64,000 nt of DNA. It comes from an uncultured Gammaproteobacteria bacterium (GTDB taxonomy: Bacteria > Patescibacteriota > Patescibacteriia > UBA11705 > DATKZF01). Shown here piece by piece: positions 1-44,444 of this stretch (position 1 is the stretch's first letter; each line of letters starts with the position of its first letter). The stretch spans positions 5,547-69,546 of the forward strand of contig CAYPKD010000005.1 of assembly GCA_964411255.1 (NCBI GenBank), read 5' to 3'. The position numbers and the translations under genes were made by a program. The notes under the pieces were generated by a model. It was not told the DNA's origin. It was given only the letters and a program-made list of their open reading frames with translations, and ran no database searches.

Positions 1-3000
1 TAATAAATGGAAGGAAACTCAATTGGAGGAATTAGAAGAAAGTTTTAGCCAAGTTCAAAAAGAGCTAAAAGATTTAGAACCAATGCAGATTTTACCTGAA
101 AATGTTTACCAGGATTTATCACTTAAATACGGTCATGTTTTTGATGCTGGAATCGGTGCTGATGCTCTTAGGAAATTGTTGCAAAAAGTTGATTTAGAAG
201 CATTAATAAAAAAGCTTGAAGTAGAAATAAAGAAAGAGAAGGTAACAAAAAAGAAAAAAGCAATTAATAGAGTAAAACTATTAAAAAGTTTGAGAAGAAC
301 AGGCATTAAGCCTGAATGGATGGTATTGACCTCAGTCCCAGTCATTCCTCCTGATTTGCGGCCAATGGTGCCATTAGATGGCGGACGGTTTGCCACATCT
401 GATTTAAATGATTTATATAGAAGAGTTATCAGTAGAAATAACCGTCTTAAAAGATTGGTGGATTTGCGTGCCCCAGAAGTTATCTGCAGAAATGAGAAGA
501 GGATGCTTCAGGAAGCAGTGGACGCTTTGATAGATAATTCTGCCAGAAAGGCGAAGACGACTACGGCTTCAACAGGCCAAAAGAGAAATTTAAAATCAAT
601 TGCTGATTATCTTAAAGGTAAGCAGGGGCGTTTTAGACAAAATTTATTAGGAAAAAGAATTGATTATTCTGGACGAAGCGTGATTGTAGTAGGTCCTCAC
701 TTAAAATTACATCAGTGTGGTCTGCCAAAGAAAATGGCTTTAGAATTATTTAAACCATTTATTATTTCTAGACTGATTAAGGAAGAATATGTCCATAATA
801 TTCGAAGCGCAAATCGGTTTATTGAAGCGGACAGATCTGAGGTGTGGGATATTTTAGAAGATATCGTAAAGGGCGCTCATGTATTATTAAATCGTGCGCC
901 GACTCTTCATCGTTTGGGTATCCAGGCTTTTCAACCAGTTTTAATTGAAGGTAAAGCAATTAAATTGCATCCTTTGGTTTGTTCTGCATTTAATGCGGAT
1001 TTTGATGGCGACCAAATGGCTGTGCACGTCCCATTAACTGAAGAAGCAAAAGCGGAAGCAAAGGAGAGAATGCTATCAATTAGAAATTTGTTAAAACCAG
1101 CTACTGGCATGCCAGTTACTCAACCATCAATGGATATGGTATGGGGAAGCTATTATTTAACTGAAATGATTGATAAAGAAAAACCAAAATATTTTAGTGA
1201 TAGTAAAGAAGCAAAATTAGCTTATGACTTGCGAAAAATCACATTACAAGAAAAAATATTGGTTAAAGTTACAACCTCTTCAGATTTGAAAGCAAAAGTA
1301 AAAGATAATATTCTTGAAACAAGTATTGGAAGGATAATTTTTAATAAAATATTTCCAGAAAAAATGCCATTTTATAATGAATTAGTTGATAAGAAAAAGC
1401 TAGCCTCTATCGTAAGTTATGCAATAGAAAAATATGGATTTGATGGTACGTCGAAGATTTTAGATAATATTAAGGAATTAGGTTTTATGCAGCTAACCAA
1501 GTCAGGGTATTCATGGGGTATGGATGATTTACCAAAACTGCAGGGAAAAGAAGAATTAATTAAGGAAGGGAATAAAAGAGTAGATGAAGTTCAGATGCAA
1601 TATGAATCTGGATTATTAACTGAAGATGAGCGATATAGCAAAGTAATTGAAATTTGGACTGAAATAAAGGAGAAAGTAATACAATTAAGTCAGAAAAGCT
1701 TAATTGAAGATGGGCCAGTATATACAATGATAACCTCAAATGCCAGAGGCTCATGGGGTCAGCTTACACAGATGATGGGCATGAAGGGATTGGTGACAAA
1801 CCCAGCAGGTCAAATTATTGAATTACCGGTTAAAGCGAACTTTAAGGAAGGTTTTTCTGTGTTGGAATATTATATTTCTACCCATGGTGCCCGTAAAGGT
1901 TTGTCAGATACTGCGTTAAGAACTGCGAACGCAGGATACTTGACCAGAAGATTAGTTGATGTTTCCCAGGACGTAGTAATTATTAAAGAAGATTGCGGTG
2001 AAAAAGAAGGTAAGTTATATACAAAGGAAGAAAGTGATAATATTGGCCAAAGTTTGGTTTCCAGAATTATTGGCCGATATTTATTAGAAGATATAAAGCA
2101 TCCGAAAACTAAAAAAGTGATTGTCAAAAAAGGAGAAGTAATATCTTTGTCAATTGCTAGAGAATTGGAAAAAATTGATTTGCAAGAGGCCCGGGTGAGA
2201 ACTGTTTTAAACTGCAAACTCAATCGTGGCTTATGTCAAAAATGCTATGGCTATGATTTATCTTATAACAAGCCGGTTGATTTAGGGTCTGCTGTAGGTA
2301 TTATTGCTGCGCAGAGTATTGGTGAACCAGGAACCCAGCTTACTATGAGAACTTTCCATACTGGTGGTGTAGCTGGTCAAGATATTACCCAAGGTTTGCC
2401 GAGGGTTGAAGAAATATTTGAAGCTCGTCCACCAAAGAAGAAAGCATTGTTAAGTGAGGCCACTGGAAAAGTATCTATTATTGAAAAACCTAGAGTCATC
2501 CAAGGACCAAAAGGTGAAATTATAGCTCAAACTGCATTTGGAGAAAGGACTATAAAAATTAAATATAGAGAGGAAGAAGTTGATACATATAATTTTAAAG
2601 ATTCTAAAAAAGTTGAATTAGTGGTAAAGGATAATGCTAAGGTAAAACAAGGCGATTTACTCTTCACTGAAGGCCGTAAAAAAATAAAGGCTGTAAGAGA
2701 CGGTGTATTAAATATCGAAGAGAAAGGTGTAAAGATAGTAAATGATATAAATAAGGAAAAGGAATATATTATTCCAGCAGGTGTTACAGTTTGGGTAAAA
2801 GACGGTGACAAAGTGCAAAAAGGTGATCAGCTGACTGAAGGAAGTATAAATCTTGAGGAATTATATAACCTTAAAGGCAAAGATGCTGTCCAGCAGTATA
2901 TATCAAATGAAATTCAGTACATTTATTCATCTCAGGGACAGAAATTAAATGATAAGCATGTTGAGGTTATTTGCCGTCAAATGTTTTCTAGGGTTTATAT

Positions 3001-3298
3001 CAAAGAACCAGGTGATACCTATTTGCTCGAAGGTGAAATAGTAGAAAAGTCTGAATTAGAAGAAGCTAATGAACAAGTGAAAAAAGGTGGCAGGCTGGCA
3101 GCAGTTGAAGAAAAGTTTTTGGGTATTTCAAAAGTATCGCTCTCAACAAAGAGTTTCTTATCTGCAGCCTCATTCCAGGAAACAGCAAGGGTTTTGATAA
3201 ATGCTGCTGTTACTGGAAAAATTGATAGATTAGAAGGCTTAAAAGAAAATGTTATTATTGGTAAATTGATTCCAGCTGGAACAGGATTTAAAAAGTAA
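1..3298 (+). CDS. rpoC: DNA-directed RNA polymerase subunit beta' (5'-truncated by window start; reading frame is open back to base 2)
   Basis: NADFDGDQMAVH catalytic Mg-binding motif; long beta'-like C-terminal region; frame open to window edge. Confidence 0.95.
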   Translation, partial: NKWKETQLEELEESFSQVQKELKDLEPMQILPENVYQDLSLKYGHVFDAGIGADALRKLLQKVDLEALIKKLEVEIKKEKVTKKKKAINRVKLLKSLRRTGIKPEWMVLTSVPVIPPDLRPMVPLDGGRFATSDLNDLYRRVISRNNRLKRLVDLRAPEVICRNEKRMLQEAVDALIDNSARKAKTTTASTGQKRNLKSIADYLKGKQGRFRQNLLGKRIDYSGRSVIVVGPHLKLHQCGLPKKMALELFKPFIISRLIKEEYVHNIRSANRFIEADRSEVWDILEDIVKGAHVLLNRAPTLHRLGIQAFQPVLIEGKAIKLHPLVCSAFNADFDGDQMAVHVPLTEEAKAEAKERMLSIRNLLKPATGMPVTQPSMDMVWGSYYLTEMIDKEKPKYFSDSKEAKLAYDLRKITLQEKILVKVTTSSDLKAKVKDNILETSIGRIIFNKIFPEKMPFYNELVDKKKLASIVSYAIEKYGFDGTSKILDNIKELGFMQLTKSGYSWGMDDLPKLQGKEELIKEGNKRVDEVQMQYESGLLTEDERYSKVIEIWTEIKEKVIQLSQKSLIEDGPVYTMITSNARGSWGQLTQMMGMKGLVTNPAGQIIELPVKANFKEGFSVLEYYISTHGARKGLSDTALRTANAGYLTRRLVDVSQDVVIIKEDCGEKEGKLYTKEESDNIGQSLVSRIIGRYLLEDIKHPKTKKVIVKKGEVISLSIARELEKIDLQEARVRTVLNCKLNRGLCQKCYGYDLSYNKPVDLGSAVGIIAAQSIGEPGTQLTMRTFHTGGVAGQDITQGLPRVEEIFEARPPKKKALLSEATGKVSIIEKPRVIQGPKGEIIAQTAFGERTIKIKYREEEVDTYNFKDSKKVELVVKDNAKVKQGDLLFTEGRKKIKAVRDGVLNIEEKGVKIVNDINKEKEYIIPAGVTVWVKDGDKVQKGDQLTEGSINLEELYNLKGKDAVQQYISNEIQYIYSSQGQKLNDKHVEVICRQMFSRVYIKEPGDTYLLEGEIVEKSELEEANEQVKKGGRLAAVEEKFLGISKVSLSTKSFLSAASFQETARVLINAAVTGKIDRLEGLKENVIIGKLIPAGTGFKK

Positions 3299-3415
3299 TA
3301 TTACGAATACCCCGAATTATTGATCCGAATATCTGAAATATTTTATAATTCGTAGAGTATTCAGATTATTTGGGGTATTAGGATAGGAAATTCGGGTCAT
3401 TAGGATCAATAATTT

Positions 3416-5275
3416 ATGAAGAAAAATTTAACAAAAAATGTAATTATATTCATTGTCATCTTTTTTGTGATTGCTGCAATTTTCAGTACGTATAACCTGT
3501 CCAACAAGGAAAAAGAAACTATTGATGTTCAAAAAATGATTCAGGAAATAGATGAAGAGAAAATTAAGTCAATTGAAGTGGCAGGCAGTGAAATATCATT
3601 AATTTTAAAAGATGATTCATTGCAAACACTAAAAAAAGAGCCAAATGAAAATTTCTCAGATTTGGTGAATAATTATAATATTGATAGGGAAAAACTATCT
3701 TTAATTTCAATTGAAGTAACAGAAGAGAGAGGGATGTCTTTTTGGTTAACCAGCGTTTTACCCTTTTTATTGCCGATTTTATTGATTGTAGCATTTATTT
3801 GGTTTATGATGCGACAAGTTCAGGGTGCAAATACAAAGGCAATGTCTTTTGGTCAGAGCCAGGCAAAGCAGTTTGACAGTAAGGGGAAAAATAAAACCAG
3901 TTTCAAAGATGTTGCAGGTGTGAGGGAAGCAAAAGAAGAATTAAAAGAAGTGGTTGAGTTTTTACGCTATCCAAAAAAGTTTTTAGATTTAGGAGCAAAG
4001 ATTCCTAAGGGTGTATTGCTGATGGGCCCTCCGGGTACAGGGAAAACATTGCTAGCAAAAGCTGTCGCCGGAGAGGCAAAGGTTCCATTCTTTACTATAT
4101 CAGGATCTGAATTTGTTGAGATGTTTGTTGGTGTGGGTGCGTCCCGGGTAAGAGATTTATTTAAGAAAGCAAAAAAGAATGCACCCTGTATTATATTTAT
4201 TGATGAAATTGATGCCGTTGGCAGACAAAGGGGAGCTGGTCTGGGTGGTTCGCATGATGAAAGAGAACAGACATTGAACCAAATTTTGGTTGAGTTAGAC
4301 GGATTTGATGTCAATACAAATGTGATCGTTATGGCAGCTACCAACAGGCCTGATGTTTTAGACCCGGCTTTACTTCGGCCAGGAAGATTTGACCGCAGAG
4401 TTATTTTAGATATGCCAGATATTCGAGATAGAGAAGAAATATTAAAAGTTCATGCTAAAGGCAAGCCATTAACGAAAAAAGTTAACATGAGAAGAGTTGC
4501 AGAAAGAACTCCGGGATTTTCTGGCGCTGACTTATCAAATTTACTAAACGAAGCGGCTATTTTAACAGCCAGAAAGGACAAGCATGAGATTGGTATGGAT
4601 GAAATACTTGATAGTATTGAAAAGGTTCTGCTTGGTCCGGAAAGAAAAAGTAAAGTACTTACTGTGGAAGAGAAAAAAGTAACAGCTTATCATGAAGCTG
4701 GCCATGCTTTAGTTGCCCATATTCAGCCAGGAGTTGATCCGGTGCAAAAAGTATCTATAGTTTCCAGAGGCCATGCAGCTGGGTATACATTGAAATTACC
4801 AACAAAAGACCGAAGCCTGCACAAGAAATCAGAATTTATAAGTGATTTGGCTGTGTTATTGGCAGGTCATACTGTAGAAAAGATAATTTTTGGCGAGGTG
4901 ACTACTGGCGCATCCAATGATTTGCAAAAGGCAACCGATCTCGCAAGAAATATCGTCACCCGATATGGTATGAGCGAGCATTTGGTGCCAAGAATATATG
5001 GGGAAAAAGAAGAATTAGTATTTTTAGGCAGGGATATACGGGAACAGAGAAACTATAGTGAGAAAGTAGCTGAAGTTATTGATAAGGAAATTGATTATCT
5101 AATAAGCGAAGCAGTAAAAACCTCTACTAATATTATTAATGATGAAAAAGATAAGCTTGAAAAGATAGTTAAACATCTTTTGGAACATGAAACGCTCGAA
5201 CAAGATGAGTTTATAAAGTTAATAGGCAAAAAAAAAGAATTAAACAAGAATGATAATATTGAAAAAAAAGAATAA
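3416..5275 (+). CDS. ftsH: ATP-dependent zinc metalloprotease FtsH
   Basis: N-terminal TM helices, AAA Walker [15 protein letters not shown] zinc-binding motif. Confidence 0.95.
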
Positions 5276-5300
5276 AAGTAAAGCTGCTTTTCGCAGCTTT
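5276..5300 (+). terminator. rho-independent terminator after ftsH
   Basis: aaagctgc-ttttc-gcagcttt hairpin followed by T-rich run. Confidence 0.5.
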
Positions 5301-5310
5301 ATTTGTTTAT

Positions 5311-6105
5311 ATGAAAAAAATAATTATTCCCCTAATTTTTTTAATAATTCTCCTGTCAGGCTGTAGCGTGGAAGTCATAGAACAAGACGATCAGAATGTA
5401 GCGGAAACCACATTTGAATTGTCCAAAGTAGAGTTTACCAACTGGACTCAAATTGATATTGGATTAAACATAAAACAATTTATTGCTGATAATCAAAATA
5501 CAATCACAGTATTGAGGATAGATGAAGATAAATATGAATGGGCGCTAGCTCAGGATAGAAGCAATCCAAAAATTATCAGCCAATGGCAGCAGAAATTGAA
5601 AGCAGAAATTGTAATAAATGGAGGATATTTTGATGAGAATAATGAATCCACTGGATTTTTAAAGATTGAAGGAGAAAAATTTGGGAATTTATCGATTAAT
5701 GGTAAAAACGGATATACGGGAATGTTATTAATAAAAGACAATCAGCCTGAATTGAGATATTTACCTGCAGAAAATTATAAAAATGAAAAAGTCAATTTTG
5801 CATTGCAGACTTTTCCAACATTAATCTATAATAATAAAAGCTTAATAACCGAAGATAGTGGGAAAACTGCGAGAAGAACGGTTTTAGCCCAGACAAAAGA
5901 TAAAAAGACTTATATTATTATTTCAGAATCATTTATCAGTTTATACAAATTAGCTCAATGGCTGGAAAATTCAGAATTAGATATTTCAATTGCTATAAAC
6001 CTGGATGGCGGACCCTCAACAGGTTTGATTGTAAAAGATTATTATAAATCTGATTCGGCTTTAGTACCTAATGTTGTTTATTTAACGGCGGTCGGCAATA
6101 GGTAG
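5311..6105 (+). CDS. lipoprotein, possible phosphodiester glycosidase (NAGPA/DUF2233-like) family
   Basis: signal peptide with LSGC lipobox; NLDGGPSTG resembles the NLDGGGS motif of that family (weak). Confidence 0.6.
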   Translation: MKKIIIPLIFLIILLSGCSVEVIEQDDQNVAETTFELSKVEFTNWTQIDIGLNIKQFIADNQNTITVLRIDEDKYEWALAQDRSNPKIISQWQQKLKAEIVINGGYFDENNESTGFLKIEGEKFGNLSINGKNGYTGMLLIKDNQPELRYLPAENYKNEKVNFALQTFPTLIYNNKSLITEDSGKTARRTVLAQTKDKKTYIIISESFISLYKLAQWLENSELDISIAINLDGGPSTGLIVKDYYKSDSALVPNVVYLTAVGNR

Positions 6106-9022: not shown

Positions 9023-11005
9023 ATGAATGTAACAGAATTAGCTAGAATATTAAAAGTTCCGACAAGCGAGCTTTTGGATAAACTGCCAAAGCTTGGTTTT
9101 AGTATTGGGAAAAAAGCGATAAAGGTAAATGATAAATTAGCTCAGCAGATTATGATCGCCTGGCGAGCGCAGGAAAAGCAAAAGGTACAAGAAGAAAAAT
9201 ATTTATCAACAAAAGATCAGGAAGAAGAAAAGGAAGTGATTGAAAAAGGTGAGGTAAATATCCCACCTGTTTTAACGGTAAGAGATTTTTCAAAAATATT
9301 AAATATGCCTGTTACTGAAGTGATTGCAGAATTAATGAAAAATGGAGTCATGGCATCAGTAAACCAGCGTATTGATTATGATACAGCTGCAATTATTGCA
9401 GAAGAATTGGGATTCCAACCAACAGAAGAGGATGTGGAAGCCAAGTTTGAAGTCGATAAATCAGTAAGAGTTAAGGAAGTTTTAGAAAAAGAAAAAAAAT
9501 TATTAGACCGGGCGCCTGTTATTGTAGTTCTTGGCCATGTTGATCATGGAAAGACAAAGCTTTTGGATGCAATAAGAAAAACAAATGTTGTTGAAGGCGA
9601 GGCCGGAGGAATTACCCAACACATTGGTGCTTATCAAGTGAAAAAACAAGGAAGAAAAATTACTTTTATTGATACTCCAGGACATGAGGCATTTACAGCT
9701 ATGCGTTCCCGCGGAGCAAAAATAGCAGACATTGCCATTTTAATAATTGCTGCTGATGATGGCATTAAGCCACAGACCGTTGAAGCGTTAAAAATTGCCC
9801 AGGAAGCGGGTTTGACAATTGTAGTTGCTATCAATAAAATTGACAAGCCCGCTGCAAATGTTGAAAAAGTGAAGCAAGAGCTAACAAAATATAATTTATT
9901 ATCAGAAGAATGGGGAGGCAAAACAATTTGTGTTCCAATATCAGCGAAACAAAATATTGGCATTGATGAATTATTAGAACAGATTTTATTAGTGGCAGAC
10001 ATGGAAGCTGAAAAAATCGTAGCCAATCCGGAAGGACAATTTATTGGAAGTACGATTGAATCGCATGTTGATAAGAACGTAGGACCGGTAGCCACTGTTT
10101 TAGTGAAAAATGGAACGTTAACAAAAGGAGATTTGTTATCTGGTGATGGCGAGTATTTTGGAAAAGTAAGAGCAATGAAAAATTATAGAGGTGAAGAATT
10201 AGACGAGGCCGGCCCATCAGTCCCTGTTCAAATCATCGGTTTTAAGGTGGCGCCAAAAGTAGGAGATGTTATTGAAGTTGGTGGAGATATGAAAAAAGCT
10301 CGAAGAAAAACAGATTATTATAAATTAACAAAAGAAGAGGAATTTGTTAAAACGTCGCATGACTCAGAAGATAATGAAGAAAAAGAAGGCATTACAAAGC
10401 TGGCTATTGTTTTACGAACCGATGTTTTAGGCTCCCAGGAGGCGATTATTGAATCTTTAGAAAAAATTGAAACTGATGATATAAAAATAGACATTGTATC
10501 AAAAGGACTGGGCAGTGTAAATGAATCAGATGTGTTGGCTGCAGAAGCCAGTAATGCAATGCTTTTGGGTTTTAATGTTATTCCTTCAAACGCAGCTGAA
10601 GCACTGGCCAGAGATAAGGGTATTGAAATAAAAACATTTAAAATAATTTATGAAATAATTGATGAGGTGAAGGCACGGCTGAATGAACTTATTAAGGCTG
10701 AATTAATCAGGGAAGATTTAGGTAAATTGGAGGTTTTAGCGTTATTTAAAAAAACAGATAAAGGGCATATCATCGGGGGCAAAGTAATTGAAGGAAAAAT
10801 AGAGGCAAACACCAGTGCGGCAGTAATAAGAAATAAGGCATTTATAGGACTGGGTAAAATTACAGAGCTACAATCGGGAAAACAGGAGGTAAAAGATGTT
10901 CAAAAGGGCCAGGAAGCCGGACTTTCATTTGAAGGACAGGCTGATATTGAAATTGGCGATATTTTAGATATTTATCGTGAGCGGGAACAGAAGAAAGTCA
11001 TTTGA
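9023..11005 (+). CDS. infB: translation initiation factor IF-2 (short form)
   Basis: G-domain GHVDHGKT and DTPGH motifs; IF-2 C-terminal domains. Confidence 0.95.
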   Translation: MNVTELARILKVPTSELLDKLPKLGFSIGKKAIKVNDKLAQQIMIAWRAQEKQKVQEEKYLSTKDQEEEKEVIEKGEVNIPPVLTVRDFSKILNMPVTEVIAELMKNGVMASVNQRIDYDTAAIIAEELGFQPTEEDVEAKFEVDKSVRVKEVLEKEKKLLDRAPVIVVLGHVDHGKTKLLDAIRKTNVVEGEAGGITQHIGAYQVKKQGRKITFIDTPGHEAFTAMRSRGAKIADIAILIIAADDGIKPQTVEALKIAQEAGLTIVVAINKIDKPAANVEKVKQELTKYNLLSEEWGGKTICVPISAKQNIGIDELLEQILLVADMEAEKIVANPEGQFIGSTIESHVDKNVGPVATVLVKNGTLTKGDLLSGDGEYFGKVRAMKNYRGEELDEAGPSVPVQIIGFKVAPKVGDVIEVGGDMKKARRKTDYYKLTKEEEFVKTSHDSEDNEEKEGITKLAIVLRTDVLGSQEAIIESLEKIETDDIKIDIVSKGLGSVNESDVLAAEASNAMLLGFNVIPSNAAEALARDKGIEIKTFKIIYEIIDEVKARLNELIKAELIREDLGKLEVLALFKKTDKGHIIGGKVIEGKIEANTSAAVIRNKAFIGLGKITELQSGKQEVKDVQKGQEAGLSFEGQADIEIGDILDIYREREQKKVI

Positions 11006-11008
11006 TTA

Positions 11009-11033
11009 AGGTGGTAGGCCGGTAGGATGGTAG
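11009..11033 (+). repeat. array of 3 tandem 8-nt NNNGGTAG repeats
   Basis: ggtggtag gccggtag gatggtag immediately 3' of the infB stop. Confidence 0.5.
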
Positions 11034-38023: not shown

Positions 38024-38033
38024 AAATTTGTTA

Positions 38034-38066
38034 GGCTGGTAGATCGGTAGGTTAGTAGGTTGGTAG
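38034..38066 (+). repeat. array of 4 tandem NNNGGTAG octamers
   Basis: gctggtag atcggtag gttagtag gttggtag between the sugar transferase start and the rnpB 3' end. Confidence 0.5.
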
Positions 38067-38151: not shown

Positions 38152-38762
38152 GATCCAAACAGGTCTATAAGCCGAATTCTGTCCCACCAGAGGCGGGGAT
38201 GATCATCTATCTAGTCCCGAGATTACTCTCGGGATCAAGCGAGCTACCAAACTTGCTCTTGCACCAGATAAGGTTTACCACCACCTAATGTTACCATTAG
38301 GCAAGAGAAGTATAAATTAAATAGTCACGTGAACCATTTAACTTTTTTCCTTCTCACTTTTCACCTTTCACCACTGCTACGCAGTGGAATTTCTAAATCC
38401 TAATTTTTTAAACTCTGAACAATTTTCAAATTTTCGAAAGGTTTTAAACATTAGAACATTTGAATTTCGAATTTGTTTAGAATTTCGTATTTCGAATTTA
38501 GCGCTTCCATTGCGCAACAATGGCTAGTATAGTCTCTGTGGCACTGGCTGTCGTCTAGGTTTATTAATTATCCTAGAATCGCCTGGGAGTTACCCAGTAT
38601 CATACCGCAGATTACGCTGATTAGCCGATTACGCAGATTGCAGGACTTTTTTTTATCAGCGTAATCAGCGTAATCTACGGTCAGGTGTTCGGACTTTCCT
38701 CCGGCCTACGCTTTTCACTTTGTTCAAAGCTTCGGCTGGCGATCATCCAACCTATTTGGATC
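38152..38762 (-). ncRNA. rnpB: RNase P RNA (bacterial type A) with large AT-rich insertions, ~610 nt
   Basis: minus-strand reads GGAGGAAAGUCCGAACACC (P4 5' strand), ACAGAAUUCGGCUUAUAG (P4 3' strand, compensatory GUCCGAA/UUCGGCU), CCAGUGCCACAGAGA, GGUGAAAGGUGAAAAGUGAGAAGG; 12-bp P1 GAUCCAAAUAGG/CCUGUUUGGAUC. Confidence 0.85.
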
Positions 38763-38886: not shown

Positions 38887-39660
38887 ATGAGACGAGTAAG
38901 GCAATTGACATATTTTGTTGTAATTTCGTTTATTCTCATGTATGTCAATGGATGTTCTTTATATTCTGAAAATGATCGTTCTTTTTTAGATGATCAGAAT
39001 AGACAGTCTGCTCGAAGAACAGTTCGTTCAGATGATTCTATAGATCAAAATCCTAATCAGCTAAAGCGGGAAAAGATTATTCAAGTAGCTCAGGCAAAAC
39101 TTTCTTTGGAAGAATTTGCTCAGGCTGAACCTTTGAAAAGATATTGTGATATTACTGGCACCAGCTTTGAAGTAGAAAAGATGCCAGTTACTATTTCTCA
39201 TGCTGGAAGAGAAGTATATGTGGAAACTGAATTAAAGGATTCAACTCTTTTTAAAGAAAATGCAACAAAAGTGCTGGGCTGGTGGAAGCGAAATTACCGG
39301 GTAAGAAAAGTAGAAGATAAGGGTCTGCGCTTGGTCACCATGCTGAAAATTCCAAGAGCAGCCAAATATGATGATGTTGCCAAGGCAATATTTGAATTCT
39401 ATCAAAAGAATTTTCAAAATATTGTTATTTCAGTTATTTGTCGGGAAATGAATAACTGGGCAGTTGATGAATATCCAAATGATTTTTCTGTGGTGATTGA
39501 AAAAAAACAGGAAAATCAGACCCAAAAAGAAGACAAGGCTGCTGCGAAAAAGGCAGCAAGGGCTGCTGCGAGAAGGGCGGCAAGGGCTGCTGCGAGAAAG
39601 GCAGCAAAGGCTGATGCAAAAGAACCAGCCAAACCTCCTGCAAAAAAAGCAGATGAATAA
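38887..39660 (+). CDS. lipoprotein with Ala/Lys-rich (histone H1-like) C-terminal repeat tail
   Basis: RBS aaggagg; lipobox VNGC; tail (AAKKAARAAARRAARAAARKAAKA). Confidence 0.7.
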   Translation: MRRVRQLTYFVVISFILMYVNGCSLYSENDRSFLDDQNRQSARRTVRSDDSIDQNPNQLKREKIIQVAQAKLSLEEFAQAEPLKRYCDITGTSFEVEKMPVTISHAGREVYVETELKDSTLFKENATKVLGWWKRNYRVRKVEDKGLRLVTMLKIPRAAKYDDVAKAIFEFYQKNFQNIVISVICREMNNWAVDEYPNDFSVVIEKKQENQTQKEDKAAAKKAARAAARRAARAAARKAAKADAKEPAKPPAKKADE

Positions 39661-41220: not shown

Positions 41221-42198
41221 TTATTTTACTAATCCGATTTGTTCTTTTACCCGTTCCAATGTTTGTGAAGCAACTTTTTGTGCGTTTTCTGCTCCTTTTT
41301 CTAAAATTTTTAAAACCTTTTTATCATCAAGTTCATTTATTTTATCTTGAATAGGATTTAGAAATTCAATAATTTTTTCAGCTAAGTCTTTTTTAAAATT
41401 ACCATAACCTTTGCCTGCATATTTTTTTTCAATTGATTTGATTTCTTCGCCAGTTACTAAGTGGTAAATGGTTAACAGATTGGAAACCGCAGGTTTATCA
41501 TCAGCATATTTTATTTCAGATCCAGAATCAGTGACTGCTTTCATTATTTTTTTGCGAATTAAATCTGGCTGATCTGTTATTGCAATATAATTATATTCTG
41601 AAGCGGCAGATTTGCTCATCTTTTGTGTTGGGTCATCGAGCCCCATCAAGCGGGCACCATGTTCTGGCACAAAAGTTTTCGGTACTTTTAGAGCATCCCC
41701 ATACAAATTATTAAACTTCTTGGCAACTGTTCTGGTTAATTCAACATGCTGCATCTGATCTTCACCTACTGGGACAACATCAGTGTCATAAAGCAAAATA
41801 TCTGCAGCCATTAGTACTGGATAGGTGAAAAGACCGGCATTGATATTTTCCTTATGTTTTTGTGCCTTGTCTTTAAATTGAGTCATCCGCTCTAATTCAG
41901 CAATCGGAGTAATAGTGCTTAGGATCCAGGACAGCTCAGTATGTTCAGATAAATGTGATTGAATAAATAACGTGCATTTTTTTGGATCAAGTCCAGCAGC
42001 AATAAATATTTTTGCCAGATTCAAAGTATTTTGTCTTAATATTTCAGGTTGCTGATAAACTGTTAAGGCATGGAGATCAACTATACAAAAATAAGAATCA
42101 TATTCATTTATGAAGTTAAGCCAGTTTTTTATTGCGCCAAAGTAATTTCCGAGATGAATTATACCGCTTGGCTGGATTCCACTTAAAATTCTTTTCAT
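41221..42198 (-). CDS. trpS: tryptophan--tRNA ligase
   Basis: class I N-terminal motif GIQPSG..HLGNY; KMSKS. Confidence 0.9.
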   Translation of the reverse strand: MKRILSGIQPSGIIHLGNYFGAIKNWLNFINEYDSYFCIVDLHALTVYQQPEILRQNTLNLAKIFIAAGLDPKKCTLFIQSHLSEHTELSWILSTITPIAELERMTQFKDKAQKHKENINAGLFTYPVLMAADILLYDTDVVPVGEDQMQHVELTRTVAKKFNNLYGDALKVPKTFVPEHGARLMGLDDPTQKMSKSAASEYNYIAITDQPDLIRKKIMKAVTDSGSEIKYADDKPAVSNLLTIYHLVTGEEIKSIEKKYAGKGYGNFKKDLAEKIIEFLNPIQDKINELDDKKVLKILEKGAENAQKVASQTLERVKEQIGLVK

Positions 42199-42206
42199 AT
42201 ATTTTT

Positions 42207-42244
42207 AGATTGGTAGATCGGTAGATTTGTAGATTGGTAGTTAG
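42207..42244 (+). repeat. left inverted-repeat arm: 4 NNNGGTAG octamers
   Basis: attggtag atcggtag atttgtag attggtag; inverted partner at 42675-42709. Confidence 0.5.
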
Positions 42245-42246
42245 AA

Positions 42247-42629
42247 TTATTTATTATTTAATTCTTTAGTTTTTGAATTTGTCATTTTATTCAACATTCG
42301 CATGACTTCATTTAATAAATTATCAACTTTTAAAAAATTTAATTTTTTTCCAAATGGTAGACGATTGGCAATTTCTATTTGAGTTTCTAATTCTGCCCCG
42401 GAAGCATATGCTACTATTAAAAAGTGACGATATTCTTTTATTGTTAGTCGTTTTTTTCCTTCAGCGATATTCGAGGGGATAGATATAGCTGTTTTTCGTG
42501 TATGTTGAATTAATCCAAATGATTCAATTTTCGGATATTATTCTGTTAATTCATAGACCGCGACAACTAAATCCATTGCTTTTTGCCAAACAATTAATTT
42601 CCGGTAATCCCCAGGTTGATTAATTTCAT
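42247..42629 (-). pseudogene. four-helix-bundle protein gene (23S rRNA intervening-sequence type), decayed
   Basis: minus strand encodes LIVWQKAMDLVVAVYELTE*YPKIESFGLIQHTRKTAISIPSNIAEGKKRLTIKEYRHFLIVAYASGAELETQIEIANRL...; one in-frame TAA and an N-terminal frameshift relative to the ATG at 42629. Confidence 0.7.
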
Positions 42630-42674
42630 TTTAAAATAATTTCCCATGTACTTTTATCCTATCATTTAAATCTC

Positions 42675-42709
42675 TACTGATCTACCAATCTACCGCCCTA
42701 CCGAACTAA
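42675..42709 (+). repeat. right inverted-repeat arm: 4 CTACCNNN octamers
   Basis: ctactgat ctaccaat ctaccgcc ctaccgaa is the reverse complement of the 42207-42244 array type. Confidence 0.5.
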
Positions 42710-42713
42710 CTTA

Positions 42714-44444
42714 TTAAATTTCAATAACTACAGGCAAGACCATTGGTCTTCTTTTAGTTTTCTTAAATAAGAATGAGCCTACTTCATTTCGTAGCCTATT
42801 TTTTATGTTATTTGGATCTGACGGGCATTTTGGATTTTTATCTTTGATAATTTTTCGGACAAGGCTGCGGGCGTTTTCAACTAATTCCCGGCTTTCTTTC
42901 ATATATATAAATCCTCTGGAAATAATGTCCGGACTTCCGATTAATTCTCCGGTTTTTCGGCTAATAGTGGCAATGACCACAAACATGCCATCTTCTGACA
43001 TCTGCCTTCTGTCTCTTAACACAATATTACTGATATCGCCGACACCCAGTCCATCAACCATTACGTATTCGGTTGGTACTCGTTTTTTTGTCAAGGTACC
43101 TCTTGCTGTTTTGCCGCGCTTTGTAAATTCAATAATTTGTCCATTATCAGCAATAAAAATATTAGATGCAGGAATGCCCATACTTTCTGCTACCTCTGCA
43201 TTTCCGCGTAACATAAAATGATTGGCTTCAATCGGGATGTAGTATTGTGGTTTTAGCAATCTGATAAGCATTTTTACATCTTCTTGTTTGGCATGTCCGC
43301 CAGCATGAACGTCCATTAGCTTATTATGAAATAATTTTGCTCCCTGGCGGGTTAGCGTGTCTTTAAGGCTTTGAATTGTTCGTTCATTACCTGGAATTAC
43401 TGAAGACGAAAATATAACAGTGTCGCCTTTTGCAATACTTAAAAATCGATGATCATTATTTGCAATTCTCATTAGAACAGCATTATTTTCGCCTTGAGCA
43501 CCTGTTCCAATAACCACTTGTTTGTTTGCAGGCAGTCGCAAAAACGGTCCTTGTTCGACAATTGTACCAGGCTTAATTTTTAAATAACCTAATTTATGAG
43601 CAATTTCAACATTAGAAACCATACTCCGGCCATCTAAATAAACTTTTTTGCCATATCTTTCAGATATGCTGATTAATTGCTGCACTCGATTTAGTGACGA
43701 GGCAAATGTCCCGACAATAATTCTACCCGGAGCCACTTTGAAAATTTTATCAATATCTTCGCCAACTGTACTTTCAGATATTTGATAACCCGGCTGCATG
43801 GCGTTTGTACTGTCAGACATTAAAGCCAATACTCCGCTTGCTCCTATTTGTGCAATTCTGTTTAAATCAGCAGGTTTATCATTGACTGGATTAAAGTCGA
43901 TTTTAAAGTCACCTGTATGAACAATATTTCCGACAGGGGAGTTAATAACGACTCCAAAACTGTCCGGAATGTTATGATTAACCCTGAAAAAGTTGACTCG
44001 GAGTTTCCCAAGCTGGATATTGTCTTTTTCCGGATCAATAATCTGAATGTTTAGTTTTTGAGTTTTGAATTCCTCATGCCGTTTTTGGATCATTCCTGCC
44101 GTTAGTTTTGCAGTGTAAATTGGTGGGAAGCTAAGCTTTGGCATTAAGTATGAAATTGCACCAATATGGTCAAGGTGACCATGAGTGATAATTACACCTT
44201 TAATTTTTTTGAGCTTGTCTTCCAGGTAAGTGATGTCTGGGATAATAAAATCAATACCAGGCATGTGTTCTTCTGGAAATTGAAGTCCCATATCGATTAA
44301 GACAATGTCATTGCCATATTCGATCAGGGTCATGTTCCGGCCGACTTCTTCCAGTCCGCCTAAAACAATGATTTTTAGTTTGTTAGAAGATTCTCTGCTA
44401 GTCCATTTTCGTCTAACAGGTCTTTTTGTTTGTTTTCGAATCAT
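42714..44444 (-). CDS. rnj: ribonuclease J
   Basis: metallo-beta-lactamase HGHLDHIG motif; beta-CASP architecture. Confidence 0.9.
   Translation of the reverse strand: MIRKQTKRPVRRKWTSRESSNKLKIIVLGGLEEVGRNMTLIEYGNDIVLIDMGLQFPEEHMPGIDFIIPDITYLEDKLKKIKGVIITHGHLDHIGAISYLMPKLSFPPIYTAKLTAGMIQKRHEEFKTQKLNIQIIDPEKDNIQLGKLRVNFFRVNHNIPDSFGVVINSPVGNIVHTGDFKIDFNPVNDKPADLNRIAQIGASGVLALMSDSTNAMQPGYQISESTVGEDIDKIFKVAPGRIIVGTFASSLNRVQQLISISERYGKKVYLDGRSMVSNVEIAHKLGYLKIKPGTIVEQGPFLRLPANKQVVIGTGAQGENNAVLMRIANNDHRFLSIAKGDTVIFSSSVIPGNERTIQSLKDTLTRQGAKLFHNKLMDVHAGGHAKQEDVKMLIRLLKPQYYIPIEANHFMLRGNAEVAESMGIPASNIFIADNGQIIEFTKRGKTARGTLTKKRVPTEYVMVDGLGVGDISNIVLRDRRQMSEDGMFVVIATISRKTGELIGSPDIISRGFIYMKESRELVENARSLVRKIIKDKNPKCPSDPNNIKNRLRNEVGSFLFKKTKRRPMVLPVVIEI

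Follow-up and report, generated by a model that had tools for sequence, protein, structure and literature searches.

The segment between rnj and trpS in a 64-kb stretch of contig CAYPKD010000005.1 (hereafter the window, meaning the whole stretch of DNA that was analyzed) is an ordinary decaying member of a family of cassettes in which a PF05635 gene, encoding a four-helix-bundle (4HB) protein, lies between two inverted arrays of short tandem repeats. With moderate confidence, we read it as a recently inactivated passenger cassette of the intervening sequence (IVS) type, with arms that pair as a stem when the host genes are transcribed. IVSs with a PF05635 ("S23p") open reading frame (ORF) occur in the 23S rRNA of Leptospira, Coxiella burnetii, Azospirillum, and others. 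Comparison with about 100 other loci shows that genes of this family nearly always lie between inverted arrays of 7-8-base tandem repeats. The normal form of the family is a cassette armed with tandem arrays, set flush between genes, polymorphic among close relatives, and similar in anatomy to a genuine rRNA IVS.

The segment bounded by the arrays is 505 bp long (window 42205-42709). Positions 42205-42240 read TTAG ATTGGTAG ATCGGTAG ATTTGTAG ATTGGTAG, and positions 42674-42709 carry the inverse, CTACTGAT CTACCAAT CTACCGCC CTACCGAA CTAA. There are five (N)GGTAG units per side, inverted relative to each other, and TAG (or CTA) recurs five times on each side at an exact spacing of 8 nt; Tandem Repeats Finder (TRF) reported a period of 8 with 4.4 copies. 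With at most one mismatch, GGTAGNNNGGTAG has 14 matches in the window compared to 0.58 expected, a count reached in none of 100 shuffles. The first base of the upstream arm is 4 nt past the rnj stop codon, and the downstream arm ends 7 nt short of the trpS ATG (42198). TAG is present in all three sense frames of the upstream arm. A repeat finder gave two arms of 36 nt that are 81% complementary, with 433 nt between them. With a GAAA loop linking them, the arms fold at -34.7 kcal/mol (z-score -8.0). For the 526-nt RNA of the whole element, the minimum free energy (MFE) structure and the centroid both contain this arm-to-arm pairing, which encloses the ORF (z -3.15). The arms of the two closest intact copies (loci L006 and L007, described below) have similar folding behavior. 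No Rfam family matched the element, even at E up to 1, and PADLOC gave no defense-system match for it.

Full-length hidden Markov model (HMM) matches above the curated cut-offs place the minus-strand frame between the arms in PF05635 (23S_rRNA_IVP; E 6e-31, 107.3 bits, cut-off 33.8, profile positions 1-106 of 106) and in TIGR02436, "four helix bundle protein" (E 1e-27, 96.4 bits, cut-off 24). The nearest solved structure by sequence is 2GSC (XCC0516, E 8e-20), and tblastn found no paralogs in the 64-kb window beyond this single copy. Lesions were called by aligning the region with two intact relatives, P0001 (from L006) and P0002 (from L007). In place of an intact ORF of about 115-135 aa, the window has a frameshift and an in-frame TAA. 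The nonsense codon (42540-42538) is CAA (Gln) in L007 and GGA in L006. Relative to L007, the run TATTTTAAAATG (42639-42628) has lost 1 nt, at the A-run around 42633-42630, and this deletion puts the ATG (42648-42646) in the wrong frame. The region is 100% identical in five independent metagenome assemblies (ENA, JGI, Logan); therefore, the lesions are not assembly errors. Recoding of TAA was considered and rejected: rnj itself ends with TAA, and the frameshift is an independent second lesion. The ratio of nonsynonymous to synonymous substitution (dN/dS) is 0.12 against L006 (window 42247-42612), so nearly all of the divergence built up under purifying selection and inactivation is recent. Judged from its sequence, the window copy is a recently inactivated cassette with a dead gene. 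An earlier note on this DNA had described four octamers per side, arms able to pair, a minus-strand gene of the 4HB type found in IVSs, and its inactivation by one in-frame TAA and an N-terminal frameshift. All of this stands.

Table 1. Features of the cassette, its host genes, and gene-less arrays (window coordinates).
Feature	Position	Strand	Remarks
rnj (RNase J), upstream host gene	42714..44444	-	co-directional with cassette
Upstream arm (gene orientation)	42674..42709	-	five 8-nt-spaced units ending in TAG: gTTAG, GGTAG x3, aGTAG
Four-helix-bundle (PF05635 / TIGR02436) pseudogene	42247..42648	-	ATG 42648-42646; normal stop 42249-42247
Downstream arm	42205..42240	-	five 8-nt-spaced CTA(CC) units, reverse complement of upstream arm
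trpS, downstream host gene	41221..42198	-	co-directional with cassette
Gene-less CTACC-type "downstream arm", 5 units	38030..38066	-	6 nt before ATG (38023) of 475-aa minus-strand gene
Gene-less GGTAG array, 3 units	11013..11033	+	directly after stop of ORF 9023-11005

All of the closest 4HB relatives of the window gene are from Patescibacteria. L006 has an intact 125-aa ortholog (84% identity) between the 3' end of rnj and trpS, and (G/A)GTAG octamers with their inverse bracket it as they do in the window. In L007, an 81%-identical gene follows a DUF2090 gene at an unrelated locus, and these arrays again stand on both sides. A scan of metagenomes with TrpS yielded two further relatives, L096 and L098. 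Their TrpS proteins are 82.7% (L096) and 80.9% (L098) identical to that of the window, compared to 80.3% for L006, and by this measure the window, L006, L096, and L098 are roughly equidistant (76-83%). In L096 and L098, the gap between rnj and trpS is 41 and 45 nt, without a 4HB gene, and these short spacers are one-armed heptamer arrays (for example, CTTACTT-CTTGCTT-CTTACTT in L098). The insertion is polymorphic: the cassette is present in the window and L006 and missing from L096 and L098. More distant rnj/trpS junctions hold other 4HB cassettes with quite different units in L040 and L115 (GGGCTGAA), arrays only in L109 and L103, and an unrelated two-gene insert in L101. The L101 insert (2343-3001, 657 nt) contains two small ORFs that, judged by eye, are HicB/HicA-type antitoxin/toxin-like.

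Synonymous divergence (pS) between the window and L006 is 0.41 in the cassette (68 sites) and 0.72 in the adjacent trpS (206 sites, saturated). The lower cassette value suggests that the cassette may have its own history, having been acquired or exchanged after the hosts diverged. The gene and arrays are one heritable unit that is present or absent at this exact site among equally related genomes and recurs at other sites. No direct repeat indicating target-site duplication is visible outside the arms, and the empty sites of L096 and L098 are too diverged and repetitive for exact junctions. No recombinase or transposase is encoded in the cassette. No relatives of the 4HB subfamily were found in viral contigs, and thus there is no evidence for phage carriage.

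The same arrangement is the norm for this gene family. Eighty Patescibacteria loci were found with an alignment of close homologs, and arrays were counted at 77 of them, an upstream array being called at three or more TAGs at 7-9-nt spacing within 150 nt of the gene. A TAG chain is present upstream in 67 of the 77 loci and a mirror CTA chain downstream in 51, compared to 5 of 572 control windows (<1%) with at least three TAGs. The reverse polarity (CTA upstream, TAG downstream) is at background level. TAG spacings are 7 (168 cases) or 8 nt (87 cases), and spacings of 6 and 9 are almost absent. The unit consensus is TAG[C/G]TTG or TAGCTTNT, and TAG alone is invariant. Arms resemble their own partners: the duplex energy is -44.9 kcal/mol for own arms and -34.5 for arms of other loci, and 6-mer Jaccard similarity is 0.23 compared to 0.06. 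Array sequence also correlates with protein similarity (Spearman 0.30; none of 2000 Mantel permutations reached this value).

Outside Patescibacteria, 14 loci from plasmid records were compared, mostly cyanobacterial, with the others from Gemmatirosa and Azospirillum. Thirteen have inverted tandem heptamer arrays (11 clear, two weak or partial) with locus-specific units, including GGGAAAA, GGGAGTA, GGTGACA, GGAGTCA, GGGTGTA, and GGCAGAA. Azospirillum lipoferum (L176) has a 4HB ORF (3501-3839) on the same strand as, and inside, an Rfam large subunit (LSU) rRNA match (2292-5490); it is a true 23S rRNA IVS, and its arms are GAGGACG-GATGACA-GAGGACG-GAGGACA and their inverse. The architecture holds across Patescibacteria, cyanobacteria, and a genuine 23S rRNA IVS. 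At the 80 Patescibacteria loci, rRNA motifs gave only 13-mer matches at chance level, and no rRNA-borne copy with TAG arrays from the candidate phyla radiation (CPR) was found; therefore, intergenic spacers are the usual home and rRNA looks like a special case. No description of an array rule for PF05635 genes was found in the full-text literature searched, most subscription journals being beyond its reach.

These comparisons bear on the broader proposals of the earlier note, whose interpretation is upheld in the main. The statement that the element has IVS architecture in a location outside rRNA holds, and it is strengthened by the tandem-heptamer arms of the Azospirillum 23S IVS. An empty site in relatives, raised there as a comparison to make, was found at rnj/trpS in L096 and L098. 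The idea that IVS-type elements transpose or are copied out of rRNA genes fared unevenly: mobility is supported by the site polymorphism and by the other locus in L007, and the direction from rRNA to elsewhere is unsupported. The note also proposed a search for other GGTAG-bounded copies; the window contains two gene-less arrays (Table 1) and no second 4HB copy.

Several loci depart from the simple plan. In L078, L084, L085, L057, and L044, the arms are doubled or nested: either each arm consists of two arrays (TAG upstream, CTA downstream), or the gene has a full TAG/CTA hairpin at both ends. This pattern resembles the insertion of a cassette within the loop of an older array hairpin. L094, on a Pseudanabaena galeata plasmid, has direct arrays, with about 15 AAAGCTA units upstream and about 12 AAAGCCA units downstream. 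In four Patescibacteria loci with a longer leader (L041, L045, L062, and L071), the stretch from the upstream array to the 4HB start contains a common motif, ATCAACATAGCGC, which may be a conserved regulatory or RNA element.

Cassettes are closely fitted to their host genes. The upstream neighbor is co-directional at 73 of the 80 Patescibacteria loci, and at 39 of these 73 the first stop that it meets in frame belongs to the array (TAG). TAG is the stop codon of 53 of the 73 upstream neighbors (73%), compared to 25% of control ORFs. Median distances are 12 nt from the last TAG to the 4HB start, 9 nt from the 4HB stop to the first CTA, and 4 nt from the last CTA to the ATG of the next co-directional gene. 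A promoter and terminator scan gave matches at shuffle level, with no excess. Motifs resembling Shine-Dalgarno sequences are rare in all genes of these genomes, for which start calls are crude, including genes after arrays. On cyanobacterial plasmids (L091, L092, L094, and L090), 4HB cassettes are located at cas10/cmr3, at cas6/cas4 (two genera; one such host is Anabaena sp. 90), and between ribonucleotide reductase subunits (Nostoc edaphicum). The published association of IVS protein (IVP) genes with clustered regularly interspaced short palindromic repeats (CRISPR) and cas genes may therefore reflect passenger insertion into operons and not a function in CRISPR.

IVS stems are substrates of RNase III (PMC4990558; PMC11270868); in Coxiella, the 28-bp terminal stem of the IVS is cut by this enzyme (PMC4990558). 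The window element is a promoterless PF05635 cistron between two inverted short-tandem-repeat arrays, flush between the rnj stop and the trpS start and in the same orientation. By analogy, we propose that it would be transcribed within the host rnj-trpS transcript. Its arms, which can form an interrupted stem of about 36 bp, would base-pair with the ORF enclosed between them. This stem would be a substrate for the double-strand RNase, RNase III, and cleavage would release the cassette RNA and separate the flanking host RNAs. Such processing, which we infer from the 23S IVSs, would allow operons as well as rRNAs to tolerate the insertion. Upstream ORFs that run into the arm would be closed by TAG, which the sense strand offers in each frame. 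With a period of 7 or 8, three units are enough to place TAG in all three frames.

Several observations weigh against this reading. Mismatches between arms include 37 G-U and 29 A-C (p 0.39), most of them are transversions (122), and without a G-U excess there is no covariation signature of a sense-strand RNA helix, although this test does not discriminate between an RNA role and a DNA role. TAG is invariant over hundreds of otherwise variable units, which a stem alone does not explain. The absence of a G-U excess and the invariant TAG suit iteron-like recognition or a stop-codon role no less than they suit a simple helix. L094 has direct arrays instead of inverted ones. In at least two cyanobacterial loci (L088 and L090), the cassette is antisense to both neighbors. 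Intact arms beside a dead gene fit an RNA role and mere recency equally.

The strongest alternative, although we think it unlikely, is that the arrays act on DNA. They would be terminal inverted iterons, serving as sites for the 4HB protein or for a recombinase acting in trans and marking the ends of a non-autonomous mobile element, and the RNA stem would be a side effect. TAG/CTA remains invariant while other unit positions drift, unit sequence co-varies with the encoded protein, and mismatches in the arms lack a G-U bias, all of which favor this alternative. Presence/absence polymorphism, different cassettes at one site, nested or double arms (L078, L084, L085, and L057), and the cassette pS of 0.41 compared to 0.72 for trpS, suggesting an independent history, also favor it. 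However, no transposase or recombinase is encoded, target-site duplication is not visible between occupied and empty sites, and viral contigs contain no relatives. To our knowledge, PF05635 proteins have no catalytic activity, which also argues against this explanation. Furthermore, distant Patescibacteria have cassettes at orthologous host positions (for example, L019/L024/L027 and L077/L080/L083/L087), which argues for long residence and against frequent jumping.

A translational role for the arrays is less probable still. TAG in three frames would halt ribosomes, and termination within the arm would melt the stem and expose the 4HB start and the downstream start, so that coupling is kept. 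The periods fit well, since 7 and 8, never 6 and rarely 9, give TAG in every frame. So do the ending of upstream ORFs at the array TAG (39/73), the preference for TAG stops (73% compared to 25% of controls), the 4HB start a median of 12 nt past the last TAG, and the downstream ATG a median of 4 nt past the last CTA. Nevertheless, several cyanobacterial and Gemmatimonadota arrays have no stop in any frame (GGGAAAA, GGGCAGGA), and the same architecture occurs in untranslated rRNA; therefore, a stop-codon role is not universal. In the window, rnj ends at its own TAA ahead of the array.

It is very improbable that the arrays are a neutral by-product, that is, slippage-prone intergenic filler of the short tandemly repeated repetitive (STRR) type in spacers where small genes happen to survive. 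Array-only spacers at the same site (L109 and L103; one-armed in L096 and L098) and the tandem-repeat hairpins inside the RNase P RNA gene of the window speak for it. Yet polarity is strict, with TAG upstream, CTA downstream, and the reverse at background; such arrays are found in less than 1% of control windows; arms resemble their own partners more than arms of other loci; and the arrangement is conserved across phyla. The polarity and control counts, together with the statistics associating arms with proteins, already disfavor this explanation.

Avd, a nucleic-acid-binding accessory protein of diversity-generating retroelements (DGRs), is a relative of the 4HB protein. The window gene has weak matches to bAvd (PF22296, E 0.003) and DivGenRetAVD (NF033474, E 2e-4), but a DGR remnant with the 4HB gene as Avd was rejected as practically excluded, because these matches are far below the cut-offs (18.5 of 40 bits and 21.4 of 80 bits, compared to 107 bits for PF05635), no reverse transcriptase (RVT-family) gene is recorded within about 10 kb on either side, and no template/variable repeat pair or long direct repeat pair was found.

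Other repeats in the window resemble the arms to different degrees. About 25 nt beyond the array at 11013-11033 lies a decayed CTA partner, with which it gives a weak hairpin (z -2.4); the array at 38030-38066 has no partner arm. Both probably remain from cassettes that were lost. The RNase P RNA gene (RF00010, 139.6 bits; 38152-38758, minus strand) is 607 nt long compared to 367 nt for the model, and two big inserts make up much of the excess. One insert (38595-38690) is a near-perfect 26-bp hairpin with tandem 9-mer arms (GAUUACGCU; -40.8 kcal/mol, z -9.8), and the other (38375-38510) is rich in AAAUUCG heptamers. A 24-nt tandem repeat (39524-39653, 5.4 copies, consensus AAAAAGCAGACAAGGCTGCTGCGA) is located inside plus-strand ORF 38887-39660, whose product would contain a corresponding repeat of 8 residues.

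IVSs were recognized over 30 years ago, and the usual home of their gene family is a cassette between ordinary genes. The arms of this cassette consist of 7-8-mers in tandem and not of a unique inverted repeat, an anatomy common to Patescibacteria, cyanobacteria, and a real rRNA IVS. As a tentative generalization, which we regard as possible rather than likely, PF05635 genes and their inverted 7-8-mer arrays could form one phylum-spanning class of mobile cassettes that colonizes transcribed spacers of operons, rRNA, and possibly RNase P RNA. The 4HB protein would recognize or propagate its own arrays, the long-known cyanobacterial STRRs and the gene-less hairpins would be footprints, and CRISPR-linked IVP genes would be passengers. 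Repeats of the STRR type could be explained in this way. The idea is open to testing through sites with and without the cassette, cognate protein/array pairs, and cyanobacterial hosts that can be cultured.

Among known systems, the 23S rRNA IVS is the closest comparison. Its origin and mobility and the function of its ORF are open questions (PMC4990558). The window element shares the protein family, a sense ORF inside a presumed host transcript, and complementary arms able to form a long stem, and the arms of the Azospirillum IVS are also tandem heptamers. The differences are that the window copy separates two protein-coding genes instead of lying in helix 25 or 45 of 23S rRNA, that its arms are built from octamers in which TAG is invariant, and that its gene is a pseudogene. 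Rfam found no rRNA in the 64-kb window, only RNase P RNA; therefore, with complementary termini and a long stem in a non-rRNA location, the element is IVS-like and not a 23S rRNA IVS.

Stand-alone 4HB genes (TIGR02436/PF05635) belong to the same family and have the same seat between operon genes (cas10/cmr3, cas6/cas4). 23S_rRNA_IVP ORFs were reported in insertions of 16S and 23S rRNA genes of CPR bacteria (PMC11270868), and IVP genes were reported in cas loci (PMC3936711; PMC10910872), including Cmr3/Cmr2 in Pleurocapsa (PMC3936711). In contrast to the present description, the papers in the searchable literature either leave their function undefined or class them as CRISPR-associated, without arrays or a gene-plus-array cassette; flanking arrays are not mentioned in PMC11270868, PMC3936711, or PMC10910872.

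The cyanobacterial STRRs are 7-nt tandem units in intergenic DNA and in helices of structured RNAs, and they resemble the arrays around cyanobacterial 4HB genes of this kind (GGTGACA, GGAGTCA, GGGAGTA). Vioque reportedly described STRR heptamers inside cyanobacterial RNase P RNA genes in 1997 (cited in PMC2858038), and the inserts with tandem-repeat hairpins in the RNase P RNA of the window parallel these. STRRs are described as dispersed with no linked gene, whereas here inverted pairs surround one gene family. In addition, the window units are octamers and the host is Patescibacteria-like, not a cyanobacterium, so the resemblance is one of kind and not of membership.

Miniature inverted-repeat transposable elements (MITEs) and other small elements bounded by terminal inverted repeats (TIRs) share with the cassette a small size, inverted termini, presence/absence polymorphism, and lack of a transposase. 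The cassette differs in that its termini are tandem 7-8-mer arrays, not a unique TIR; no target-site duplication was recognizable, as far as the diverged empty sites allow the junctions to be placed. It also differs in carrying a conserved ORF under purifying selection that is strongly oriented to the host genes.

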